This document shows, one piece after another, positions 22,486-24,733 of a stretch of 37,750 bases of DNA. Origin of the DNA: Patescibacteria group bacterium (GTDB lineage: Bacteria > Patescibacteriota > Minisyncoccia > Phycocordibacterales > JACOZG01); contig JBBTRZ010000010.1 of the NCBI GenBank assembly GCA_038064935.1, positions 1 to 37,750 on the forward strand, given 5' to 3'. Made by a program: the position numbers and the translations under genes. How positions within the stretch are numbered: position 1 is the first letter of the stretch; every line of letters begins with the position of its first letter. The notes under the pieces are model-generated. The model worked only from the letters and a program-made list of their open reading frames with translations. It did not search any database and was not told where the DNA came from.

Positions 22486-22833
22486 ATGAAATTTGCGGTG
22501 ATTAAAACGGGAGGGAAACAATATAAAGTCGCCGATGGCGATGTTTTGACGATCGAGAAATTGCTTGCTTCGACGAAGCCACAGCGAGGCGAGCCCGCTT
22601 TGCCCGCTGTTGGAGAAGAAGTGACTTTCAAAGAAGTCCTTTTGACAGACGATGGCGAGAAGACAATTTTAGGCACTCCGACCATCACTGGCGTCGCGGT
22701 CACGGCTGAAGTGATCGCTGTTGGGCGTGCTAAGAAAGTGACCGTCATTAAATATAAACCTAAAGTCCGCTACCGCGTGAAGCGCGGCCACCGCCAGCCG
22801 TATATGAAGGTTAAGATAACCTCGATTAAATAA
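22486..22833 (+). CDS. rplU: 50S ribosomal protein L21 with a 10-aa insertion
   Basis: FAVIKTGGKQYKV..GD...IEKL, KYKPK..Y..K.GHRQ. Confidence 0.96.
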   Translation: MKFAVIKTGGKQYKVADGDVLTIEKLLASTKPQRGEPALPAVGEEVTFKEVLLTDDGEKTILGTPTITGVAVTAEVIAVGRAKKVTVIKYKPKVRYRVKRGHRQPYMKVKITSIK

Positions 22834-22869
22834 AAAAGACTCGAGCGTGCTTTCGCACGATCGAGTCTT
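22832..22869. terminator. Terminator between rplU and the orphan operon
   Basis: AAGACTCGA-G-CGTGC-TTTC-GCACG-A-TCGAGTCTT with an A run (U run on the minus strand). Confidence 0.8.
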
Positions 22870-22920: not shown

Positions 22921-23406
22921 CTAGATCGTTGCATCCGAGTAACGCACACACTCCACAGCATCGTCCTTATCTTGCAAAAATGCTTGGAATTTCTCGTAGT
23001 CATGGACTACCAAGGTTACAACAGCGCAACCCTTGGTACCGTTGTCCAAGTATCTCACATTGACCTGACGGATAAAAAGAACTTTTTCCTCCGCATCAAC
23101 CATCTCCCGGAGCTTGGTGAAAACTGCCCGAGCTCGCGGTATACGCAAGTGACGACACAAGTCTTTGAATACTGTTTCCACAAGATCTTGGACTATGTCA
23201 AAGTCTGTGAGTTTGTCCGAATGGACCGCCTGATGGAGTTCACGGAGGTACTCCGCGGTAAATTCATCTCGGAAGATACCGCGGTCAATCTCTCCGCGCA
23301 ACTCTATCAACATCTTGATCCCGTCTGCCGTCAGTTCCGTATCGCGGATGAGAAAAGCCAAGACGCCCCAGAATTGAAGCAACTTCTCAATCTCAATCTT
23401 CTTCAT
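22921..23406 (-). CDS. Hypothetical protein (orphan cassette)
   Basis: ATG preceded by AAGGAG SD; alternative in-frame ATG at 23439. Confidence 0.7.
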   Translation of the reverse strand: MKKIEIEKLLQFWGVLAFLIRDTELTADGIKMLIELRGEIDRGIFRDEFTAEYLRELHQAVHSDKLTDFDIVQDLVETVFKDLCRHLRIPRARAVFTKLREMVDAEEKVLFIRQVNVRYLDNGTKGCAVVTLVVHDYEKFQAFLQDKDDAVECVRYSDATI

Positions 23407-23418
23407 TACAAACTCCTT

Positions 23419-23475
23419 TGGCGTTAAGGTTATCGCCATACCTAAGCTGTTTTAAGACGATTGCTTAAACGTCTT
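23419..23475 (-). ncRNA. Tandem H-type pseudoknot leader, copy 1
   Basis: 46/57 identical to 23914-23970; 8 of 11 differences are compensatory. Confidence 0.7.
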
Positions 23476-23583
23476 TGGTTTAAAAGAACTTCCGATTCAT
23501 CCTTTTGGAATCATCAGTCGAGATACACATCTCGATTCGGAGAGAGTTTTAATGGTTAACTCTCGAACCCAGTGGCGATACCA

Positions 23584-23901
23584 CTATTCAACCTCCTCCA
23601 CCTTTAGGCCGATCACTTTGCCGATAGTTTCCAGGGCATTTTTACCCTGGTGGTTCGGCAGGCCGTTTGGCAGGAAGATCCAACCCCCAAGGACAGATAC
23701 TAGGTGTCCAAGCCCCTCACTGTTCAGACGATGTGTAATCTGTTTAACCCTTGATTCACAAGTCTCACAGAAACAGCACATGATCTGACAAGCGGTAAAT
23801 TGGGCACTGACGAGAACCTGTCTCGGCCTATTCCAACCTTCCACCTTGACCTTAATGACGTGGGCGTCGTTGTCATTTCCGATACGAAGGTCTGCAAGCA
23901 T
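23584..23901 (-). CDS. Hypothetical Cys-rich protein (orphan cassette)
   Basis: CQIMCCFCETC cluster; AAAGAG SD-like; alternative in-frame ATG at 23934. Confidence 0.65.
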   Translation of the reverse strand: MLADLRIGNDNDAHVIKVKVEGWNRPRQVLVSAQFTACQIMCCFCETCESRVKQITHRLNSEGLGHLVSVLGGWIFLPNGLPNHQGKNALETIGKVIGLKVEEVE

Positions 23902-23913
23902 GGGAACTCTTTC

Positions 23914-23970
23914 TGGCGTTAAGGTTATCGCCATACCTGTCCTGTTTTGAAACGAGTGGACAAACGTTTG
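23914..23970 (-). ncRNA. Tandem H-type pseudoknot leader, copy 2
   Basis: Covarying copy of 23419-23475. Confidence 0.7.
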
Positions 23971-24022
23971 CTGTTACTGCCAACGCGACAATTACAGCCA
24001 AAATCAAAAAACTACCTGTTCC

Positions 24023-24053
24023 TAGCTTAGCATAAGTGATGGCTATTTGTCAA
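24023..24053 (-). promoter_or_regulatory. Promoter of the orphan operon
   Basis: TTGACA-18 nt-TAAGCT with a TG extension. Confidence 0.6.
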
Positions 24054-24085
24054 TAGCGGAAAAAAGGACTCAAAACAAGGATATT

Positions 24086-24733
24086 CTAGGACCGATTCGC
24101 TAAGGCGTTTTTGAGGGTATCAGTATCGGAGTATTCGAGCTCCGTGCCGGTCGAGAGGCCGCGGCCTAAGACGGTTAAGTGTAAACCCTCGTCGGTAAAT
24201 TGTTTTAGTGTTTGCTTGAGAAATTCGATGGTGTGATCGCCCTCGGGATTAACGGCCAAGGCGATAATCATTTCCTTAATTTTACGCGGGGAATTGTCAG
24301 CCATTCGTTTAGTTACGGCCGCCGTGAGTTCTCGGAGTCGGACTTTCAACTGTGGCTCCTTCTCTAAAATAGGGATAAGGCCGCCTAAGACGAAGAAGTG
24401 CCCGTTATAAGTGTCCGACTGGCGCACGGCTTCCAAGTCGGCGTCTTTCTCCACCACCATGAGGAGACTATTATCTCGTTCCAGATCCTGGCAAAGATCG
24501 CAAGTTTTGGCTGGCCCACCCGACTCTGGTCGGACGGGAGCGGAATAGAAACGGAAACATTGCTGGCATTGAGCCACCGCTTTACCTAATTCATGGAGTT
24601 CTGCGGTTAGACGATCAATTTGATTTTGCCCTTCACGAAGCAAATGATAGACAAAACGGCGCGCCTGCCGTGGTCCGATCCCCGGAAAACGGCGGAAAGT
24701 CTCGGTTAAGCGATCAACGATATTGTGAGCCAT
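24086..24733 (-). CDS. recR: Recombination protein RecR
   Basis: PGIG.RQA.R HhH, C..C...C..C zinc finger, VVE..D Toprim, G.ELEY.D..TL..AL. Confidence 0.95.
   Translation of the reverse strand: MAHNIVDRLTETFRRFPGIGPRQARRFVYHLLREGQNQIDRLTAELHELGKAVAQCQQCFRFYSAPVRPESGGPAKTCDLCQDLERDNSLLMVVEKDADLEAVRQSDTYNGHFFVLGGLIPILEKEPQLKVRLRELTAAVTKRMADNSPRKIKEMIIALAVNPEGDHTIEFLKQTLKQFTDEGLHLTVLGRGLSTGTELEYSDTDTLKNALANRS

Follow-up and report, generated by a model that had tools for sequence, protein, structure and literature searches.

The window analysed here, a stretch of 37,750 nucleotides from a Patescibacteria group genome (contig JBBTRZ010000010.1, positions 1 to 37,750), carries on its minus strand two copies of a leader of approximately 57 nt that consists of two consecutive H-type pseudoknots. 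The first (PK1) is built of helices P1 and P2 with an A-rich loop 3, and the second (PK2) of helices S1 and S2. Over 19 distinct copies this leader is a conserved RNA fold of the sense strand, which keeps a short, fixed spacing to the start codon and occurs in operons that ribozymes cut. It is a pseudoknotted 5'-leader element without an Rfam 15 family, set among ribozyme arrays of an already known kind, with a well-supported structure and a function that we infer.

The two copies in the window are 495 nt apart, and their sequences and coordinates, first read in a preliminary description of this DNA, proved correct when read again. The elements of the two copies are as follows.

23419-23475, minus strand: tandem-pseudoknot leader, copy 1 (covariance model, 81.2 bits, and pair counts)
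23475-23470 with 23459-23454, minus strand: P1 of copy 1
23467-23463 with 23447-23443, minus strand: P2 of copy 1
23442-23440 with 23430-23428, minus strand: S1 of copy 1
23438-23434 with 23423-23419, minus strand: S2 of copy 1
23914-23970, minus strand: tandem-pseudoknot leader, copy 2 (covariance model, 83.5 bits, and pair counts)
23969-23965 with 23954-23950, minus strand: P1 of copy 2
23962-23958 with 23942-23938, minus strand: P2 of copy 2
23937-23935 with 23925-23923, minus strand: S1 of copy 2
23933-23929 with 23918-23914, minus strand: S2 of copy 2

The copies differ at 11 positions, and eight of these differences are compensatory, as had been claimed: they alter three pairs of the loop-to-tail helix and change one G-C pair of stem 1 to A-U. 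A 24-nt core, GGTATGGCGATAACCTTAACGCCA, occurs exactly twice in the window, where 100 shuffles yielded no match with three mismatches or fewer, and twice in the whole genome of 640 kb and 40 contigs. The base composition of the region revealed no island.

Further copies were searched for by several routes. The exact core, allowing up to three mismatches, was present in 2 of 401 genomes sampled from the order. A first covariance model (R1), built on three copies and run on 151 relatives, matched strongly in four genomes, the window's own included, and a second model (R2) did so in 4 of 31 genomes of the family (the window's own counted) and in none of the five other genomes of the genus. One degenerate pattern returned seven metagenome loci, six genome loci and no viral locus. 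A protein search with the downstream gene as query, in which the RNA was not used, added genomes G183 and G202 and recovered G323. After removal of duplicates and of one chance match, the final set comprised 19 distinct copies. They come from 12 genomes or contigs that belong to Saccharibacteria and other Patescibacteria, tiny bacteria of groundwater, with records titled Candidatus Saccharibacteria, Patescibacteria group or Paceibacterota. The motif is rare, as none of the 150 other genomes of a phylum-wide sample contained it at E<=1e-4, and carrier genomes have one to four copies, each time at a single locus; in G397 four copies are found inside 2 kb.

The chance match was a hit of the pattern in Dielma fastidiosa that the model did not match. 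The weak matches of R1 (15 rows, at most 25.7 bits) were also dropped, six of them having been inspected, as were the weak R2 rows in G422 and G421; the inspected sequences were GC-rich or coding and lacked the helices. In viral contigs the first pattern had no match and a looser one had a single match, which the model did not recognise. No part of the locus was matched in plasmid records, and in phage records only the hammerhead part described below was matched.

In the 19-copy alignment, 92.7% of the cells form standard pairs, compared to 77.3% after shuffling, and 11 of the 19 pairs change on both sides, so that all four helices covary. Neither the observed percentage paired nor the covariation score was reached by any of 500 shuffles, and pairing fell to 27-44% when the 3' partners were slid by one to three columns. 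P2 is paired in 100% of the cells and covaries at 5/5 pairs, with at least nine different complementary versions, P1 covaries at three of its six pairs, S1 shows a flip from G-C to C-G in five copies, and S2 is almost invariant, with one double change each in G202 and in copy G183b. The alignment was fitted to a model that holds P2 and S2, so the support for these two helices leans towards the structure, whereas the support for P1 and S1 is independent of the alignment method because both were absent from the search model. RNAalifold, used unaided, selects P2 and S2. G-U pairs occur at five pairs and on the motif's own strand only, which indicates a sense-strand RNA.

The tandem-pseudoknot fold proposed from the two window copies is thus upheld over the whole set, the covariance-model search and the covariation check suggested at that time having yielded both more copies and, in pair counts against the 500 shuffles, covariation. 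The two pseudoknots are separable, because in G319 a weak relative of the downstream gene has, by eye, only PK1, followed by a Shine-Dalgarno sequence (SD). The AAAC of loop 3 is kept in 19/19 copies and roughly half of the 57 nt are near-invariant, unpaired positions included; loop 2 (columns 15-17 of alignment A8) is variable and reads ACU, AAC, AAU, AGU, AAA, GAC or UUU. In all five operons with at least two copies (the window, G397, L032, G183 and L029), adjacent copies differ in P2 while being alike in P1, S1 and S2.

Rfam 15, which the preliminary description had also proposed to consult, gave no match to the motif at the gathering score or at E<=10, the families covered including preQ1-I/II/III, SAM-II, fluoride, pistol, hatchet, twister and HDV-like RNAs. 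Searched whole at the gathering score, the window yielded only a tRNA, away from the motif; positions 23300-24100 at E<=10 yielded three chance rows for small nucleolar or long non-coding RNAs, none on the motif; and the loci of other copies, at E<=0.01 to 1, yielded only hammerhead, twister and tRNA matches.

Each of the 19 copies directly precedes an open reading frame (ORF) of 59-188 aa, two of these ORFs being clipped by contig ends, with 7-14 nt between the end of the motif and the start codon. Where S2 is followed by an SD-like run (11 copies), it is separated from the start by 9-14 nt; of the eight copies that lack such a run, seven have a gap of 7-9 nt and one a gap of 12 nt. For these gap counts the starts in G202 and G183b and the SD of L032a were set by eye. 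In the window both leaders indeed abut the SD, as reported earlier, and the ATG follows 12 nt past the motif.

22921-23418, minus strand: SD AAGGAG (23418-23413), after copy 1, and 161-aa gene of family D, described below (ATG 23406, stop 22921)
23584-23913, minus strand: SD-like GAAAGAG (23913-23907), after copy 2, and 105-aa orphan ORF with five Cys (ATG 23901, stop 23584)

In ORFs of 150 aa or more, a crude count found an SD-like run before 6-12% of the first ATGs in G000, G323, G183, G202 and G818, with 3-13% at control sites, and before 2 of 10 first ATGs in G397. The idea that the pseudoknot replaces a missing SD is weakened by this count, crude as it is, since genes of these genomes lack an SD by default. 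Although the count suggests very low use of SDs, strong ones precede the pseudoknot-led genes in the window's own family. No conserved alternative pairing that would hide the SD was found in the 19-copy alignment, and an anti-SD role was rejected for the CCUU that the window copies have in their S2 loop, as the other copies do not keep it.

An AUG inside the motif had been put forward as a possible alternative start. It does lie in frame, 33 nt (11 codons) upstream, in both window copies. As a general alternative start it fails: it is present in 10 of the 19 copies; six of these, each closely related to the window, have it in frame and open, and in the other four it is out of frame or followed by a stop. 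CUG or AUA takes its place in nine. A conserved start at this AUG is therefore not supported.

The leader belongs to a larger cassette, located between the cistrons of small operons and made up, in order, of a hairpin, a type III hammerhead ribozyme, a U-rich box and the pseudoknots. The preliminary description had recognised the tandem-pseudoknot leader correctly but overlooked this ribozyme-punctuated cassette and the link to family D. Nine copies lie approximately 15-25 nt downstream of a hammerhead (four scored by Rfam, five placed by alignment or by eye), one further copy is approximately 95 nt away from the hammerhead before it, and promoter-like sites precede nine. All nine Rfam hammerhead matches in G397, G183, G202 and G818 (9/9) are on the motif-bearing contig. 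The operon of G397 has four genes, each with a pseudoknot leader, and its three internal leaders each follow a type III hammerhead (Rfam 48.5 and 47.7 bits for two, the third placed by alignment). Hammerheads also form arrays in G202, with three, and in G818, with three and a twister-P1 match below the gathering score. Several self-cleaving ribozymes between short genes of the same strand are thus found in the relatives, and the window has one variant copy. Twister-P1 matches of 49-50.6 bits (gathering score 67.2) are located beside hammerheads at L032 4591-4648 and L035 1714-1785. The pseudoknots are optional in the arrays, and in other cistrons the start codon comes directly after the U-rich box. 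The cassettes of the window and G259 are ~85-90% identical, compared to ~30% for the genes.

In the window the cassette precedes copy 1 and has the following parts.

23542-23564, minus strand: hairpin just 5' of the hammerhead cut site, stem GAGAG/CUCUC, loop UUAACCAUUAAAA (alignment A9)
23492-23540, minus strand: core-variant type III hammerhead (alignment with Rfam-scored hammerheads of relatives), with stem III CCGA/UCGG, stem I 23535-23518, CUGAUGA 23517-23511, stem II 23510-23499, GAA 23498-23496 and a predicted cut after A 23536
23482-23489, minus strand: U-rich box GUUCUUUU, between ribozyme and pseudoknots

The window hammerhead has the CUGAUGA box, the GAA box and three stems, of which I and II are closed by loops as in type III, and it aligns column for column with the Rfam-scored hammerheads of the relatives. 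Its core is non-canonical, with U15.1-A16.1 in place of A-U and U.U at 10.1/11.1, and RF00008 did not match it, either genome-wide at E<=1 or locally at E<=10. The U15.1-A16.1 pair in stem III was reached through two compensatory double changes relative to the relatives. According to the excerpted text of PMC3088659, a natural hammerhead variant with U15.1-A16.1 still cleaves, although weakly. The window hammerhead may therefore be regarded as a core variant of uncertain activity, not necessarily dead. Over 47 nt it is 87% identical to an intergenic element of 66 Pseudomonas phage records, with the same stem II; the legend of Figure S6 in PMC3088659 places the intergenic hammerhead of phage PaP3, a phage that need not be related to those of the 66 records, among the active core variants.

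The A9 relatives retain the hairpin before the hammerhead, its stems covarying and its loop (~CCAUU..UAAAA) staying similar across genera. Once the ribozyme has cut, the hairpin at 23542-23564 would become the 3' end of the upstream mRNA fragment. The U-rich box, GUUCUUU(A/G), follows seven of the eight hammerhead or twister ribozymes inspected in L035 and L032, and, in A9, 7/8 of the hammerheads that precede pseudoknot copies; it may serve as a binding site or enhance translation. A run resembling it follows the promoter in the first-gene leaders.

The genes behind the leader are diverse. The claim that the two window genes are unrelated stands, the 161-aa and 105-aa proteins giving no BLASTP match to each other, and so does the proposal that the leader is reused before new genes, since the 19 copies precede two small protein families and nine singletons. 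Family D accounts for 8 of the 19 downstream genes; its members have 153-178 aa, are ~30-40% identical and include the 161-aa gene of the window. The leader is present before 8/8 strong D genes, among them those of G183 and G202, which were found by protein search alone. In a library of 1.8 billion proteins, family D comprises 143 clusters (50% identity) at E<=1e-3, and it is found in 8 of 401 genomes sampled from the order and, among the 401 of the phylum sample, in the window's own only. The analysis thereby draws attention to an unannotated protein family that is accompanied by the motif in all eight strong members seen.

The D proteins are acidic (isoelectric point, pI, of 4.6-6.0, with one at 7.8), belong to no Pfam or PHROG family and have a best PDB sequence match of E=0.13. 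An AlphaFold2 (AF2) model shows a helical bundle and a beta hairpin with a mean pLDDT (predicted local distance difference test) of 75.7. Searched with this model, Foldseek returned nothing at E<=0.001, and the best VIA match (Z 6.2) was to generic helical bundles; the ESM Atlas gave no usable match, and a separate search for homologous proteins returned only entries named 'hypothetical protein'. The other 11 downstream genes consist of one two-member Cys-rich family (G397 and L032, six Cys) and unannotated singletons. No Pfam or PHROG family was found for the 105-aa protein of the window, and neither window ORF matches Pfam at E<=1. The motif occurs without a D gene on the 3951-nt contig L034, and none was found anywhere in the G818 assembly.

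Small Cys-rich orphans are found as first genes in the window (23584-23901, minus strand), at L026 3835-4239 and at L032 8589-8954, and an operon that opens with a variable gene and closes with a conserved one resembles a two-partner module. In the G397 operon, gene three (L026 5224-5502) has weak Pfam matches to Lectin_C (22.9 bits, cut-off 22.6) and, below the cut-off, to Lcl_C.

With some hesitation, we favour the reading that the motif is a constitutive cis-acting module that helps translation to start on, or insulates, cistrons separated by ribozymes. The leader would fold locally, as a self-contained unit, right after the transcription start or right after the ribozyme, and would thereby lock up the sequence as far as the start region. 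The upstream ribozyme and the interchangeable ORF would thus be kept from pairing with the short single strand that bears the start codon and the SD, if there is one, and a rigid stack of helices would be held at a fixed distance from the start. The leader would probably also be a barrier to 5'-to-3' decay of the 5'-OH fragment made by the ribozyme.

A constitutive role is favoured because both pseudoknots are short-range and able to fold locally, because no alternative pairing or expression platform is conserved, and because the downstream genes are interchangeable. The difference in P2 between adjacent copies, seen in 5/5 operons, fits with selection against cross-pairing within one precursor transcript. 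The order of ribozyme, structure and ribosome-binding site (RBS) is moreover that of RiboJ, an insulator in which, according to the excerpt of PMC6206723, a ribozyme and a 23-nt hairpin are thought to expose the RBS and to stabilise the transcript. The cassette thus mirrors the design logic of such synthetic insulators, in which a self-cleaving hammerhead is followed by a small stable structure and this by the RBS, and the motif would be the natural counterpart of the post-ribozyme hairpin. RiboJ, however, is engineered and has a simple hairpin, whereas here a natural, conserved tandem pseudoknot is found, which also occurs without a ribozyme.

Several observations speak against such a module. 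Conservation of the unpaired positions (AAAC in loop 3, U in loop 1 and the junction of S1 and S2) exceeds what a spacer or insulator seems to need, although triple-helix pseudoknots do constrain their loops. The motif stands on one cistron only in G202, which has three hammerheads, and on one cistron in L035, a 2956-bp contig of G818 with at least four ribozymes. The tight tie to family D hints at a specific rather than a generic role. Finally, a stable structure 7-9 nt from the start falls within the 30S footprint and could equally repress translation.

The main alternative is an operator or aptamer, which we consider possible if somewhat doubtful. The double pseudoknot would bind a protein, possibly encoded in the operon, or a small ligand, its occupancy blocking or permitting the loading of 30S, and each cistron would have its own copy of the switch. 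Near-invariance of about half of the 57 nt, unpaired positions included, is typical of aptamers and protein operators, and the proximity of the motif to the start, the leader before all strong D genes (two of them found without the RNA) and the restriction of the motif to the D cistron in the three-hammerhead array of G202 all agree with it. The topology of PK1 is that of the small pseudoknot riboswitches, and the autogenous operators of T4 gene 32, S15 and S4 are pseudoknots at the RBS. On the other hand, an expression platform is missing, none of the conserved pairings includes the SD, and conservation of an alternative fold is not seen; family D is acidic and has no Pfam family, PDB sequence relative or informative fold match; the motif of L034 has no D gene beside it and none was found in the G818 assembly; and with unrelated orphan genes downstream there is no coherent metabolic theme for a ligand.

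Like the preQ1-I and SAM-II riboswitches, PK1 has a stem of 5-6 bp, a short loop 1, a loop-to-tail helix and an A-rich loop 3, and is located in a 5' leader; the H-type pseudoknot with an A-rich loop 3 along P1, a trait of preQ1-I, is however common to many pseudoknots and does not define the family. Unlike in these riboswitches, no covariance-model match is found, loop 2 is variable and the downstream genes are orphans. In preQ1-I a conserved C of loop 2 pairs with the ligand and the SD lies within the 3' strand of P2, whereas the SD of the motif is at least 25 nt past P2, after PK2. The operators of T4 gene 32, rpsO/S15 and the S4 alpha operon also have a pseudoknot at or beside the RBS, that of S4 being double as well, but they bind a known RNA-binding protein encoded by the operon, whereas none is evident here; family D, which follows the motif in all eight strong members, is acidic and shows no fold recognisable as RNA-binding. 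The S4 site is moreover nested and includes the start codon, whereas the motif is tandem and ends before the SD. The ToxI RNAs of type III toxin-antitoxin systems resemble the motif as repeated pseudoknot-forming RNAs upstream of a gene, but they are short head-to-tail repeats before a gene for a ToxN-type nuclease, whereas here single copies 495 nt apart have their own ORFs, which belong to no Pfam family.

It is unlikely, in our estimation, that the leader represents a new class of functional RNA, as opposed to a passive structure, acting as a start-site element or as an orphan riboswitch. As a start-site element, its G/C-rich S2 helix, 7-9 nt from the start, may dock in the place of the SD duplex and recruit 30S in these SD-poor genomes, and it would then be a small natural bacterial counterpart of an internal ribosome entry site (IRES). 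As an orphan riboswitch, it may control each cistron released by a ribozyme. The motif adds a well-supported new entry from Patescibacteria to the structured RNAs, as a candidate riboswitch, operator or start-site element.

We give rather little credit to a barrier to decay as the only function, in which pseudoknots of the triple-helix type would halt a 5'-to-3' exonuclease on the 5'-OH mRNA with no direct role in initiation. The association with ribozyme cleavage sites, the compact stacked helices and the A-rich loop 3 would suit such a barrier, and RNase J is known to degrade the 5'-OH product of the glmS ribozyme, while structured RNAs can block exonucleases. A pure roadblock, however, needs no tight spacing to the start codon, stem I of the hammerhead already provides a 5'-terminal hairpin after type III cleavage, and nine copies follow promoters instead of ribozymes.

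That the motif is itself a new self-cleaving ribozyme, or part of one, seems very improbable. It does share its arrays with hammerhead and twister matches, it is about as large and as rich in pseudoknots as small ribozymes are, several known classes of these being small double pseudoknots, and pistol, hatchet and twister-sister were reportedly discovered through associations of this kind. However, nine copies already have a hammerhead ~15-25 nt upstream, so that a second cut would free only a tiny fragment, an internal cut would strip the leader from the RBS that the motif abuts, and no Rfam ribozyme model matches it at E<=10. Hardly any more credible is conservation at the level of protein or DNA, as an N-terminal extension (MAITLTP...) translated from the internal AUG, in frame and open in 6/19 copies, or as a DNA repeat for recombination of gene cassettes, which the higher identity of the cassette than of the genes between the window and G259 could favour: the peptide is largely refuted by the loss, closure or frame shift of the AUG in the remaining copies and by SD-like runs that serve the downstream start, and under neither version are interleaved compensatory changes and strand-specific G-U pairs expected.

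Ribozyme arrays of this type have a precedent in the clustered hammerheads described by Perreault et al. 2011 (PMC3088659), which flank single genes and whose proposed task, according to the excerpted text, is to split long transcripts into mRNAs of one gene each. The relatives of the present locus share with those arrays the placement of type III hammerheads between short genes without known function; the arrays in the excerpt of PMC3088659 are in prophage-type contexts and no double-pseudoknot leader is mentioned in it, whereas the motif was found in no viral contig. Self-cleaving ribozymes are frequent in the operons of bacteria and phages, yet their roles there are still called elusive in the excerpt of PMC6765202. 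The present locus is a compact natural system in this regard, as ribozyme, U-rich box and double pseudoknot form one conserved cassette before interchangeable genes, and it opens the question of what an mRNA fragment must carry in order to be translated and to survive after ribozyme cleavage. Literature searches, whose scope did not extend to supplementary motif lists, found no report of self-cleaving ribozymes in Saccharibacteria and, among the top matches listed, no double-pseudoknot leader of this kind. Intergenic regions near ribozymes are said to have been screened by Weinberg et al. in 2015, and the motif lists of that study could bear on the novelty of the leader.

The locus in the window sits between recR/dnaB-like and rplU-like genes, as it does in a second genus, and that of G397 is syntenic with it, with a dnaB-like gene, a recR-like gene, the operon and a convergent rplU-like gene (all named by eye from translations). 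Three further features delimit the two-gene operon of the window or adjoin its first leader.

24024-24053, minus strand: promoter-like site of the two-gene operon, TTGACA (24053-24048), 18-nt spacer and TG-extended TAAGCT (24032-24024), by eye
23970-23999, minus strand: hairpin P0 adjoining copy 2, outer stem GGCUGU/ACAGC and an inner stem (minimum free energy fold)
22832-22867, minus strand: terminator-like hairpin with 13-nt arms, one mismatch and a GAAA loop, followed by a U run, by eye; not called by a consensus scan

The promoter-like site was missed by a consensus promoter scan, its -10 hexamer matching at 3/6 positions, and by eye a similar arrangement recurs upstream of the first-gene copies in G259 and other loci. 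Copy 2 and eight other first-gene copies show, also by eye, the promoter-like site followed by a hairpin that abuts PK1, and the hairpins at the P0 position in G259, G419, G397a, L032a and L031 have, as read by eye, different but complementary stems. In more distant first-gene leaders the U-rich box and PK1 are separated by a long hairpin (conserved base, ~CAUAGCC...GGCUAUG) and a mini-hairpin (ACC....GGU), as seen at L045 1300-1436, on the minus strand of L046 before 2462 and of L029 before 724, in L049 before a D-like gene and at L047 1335-1428. The full first-gene leader may thus be a structured RNA of approximately 150 nt.

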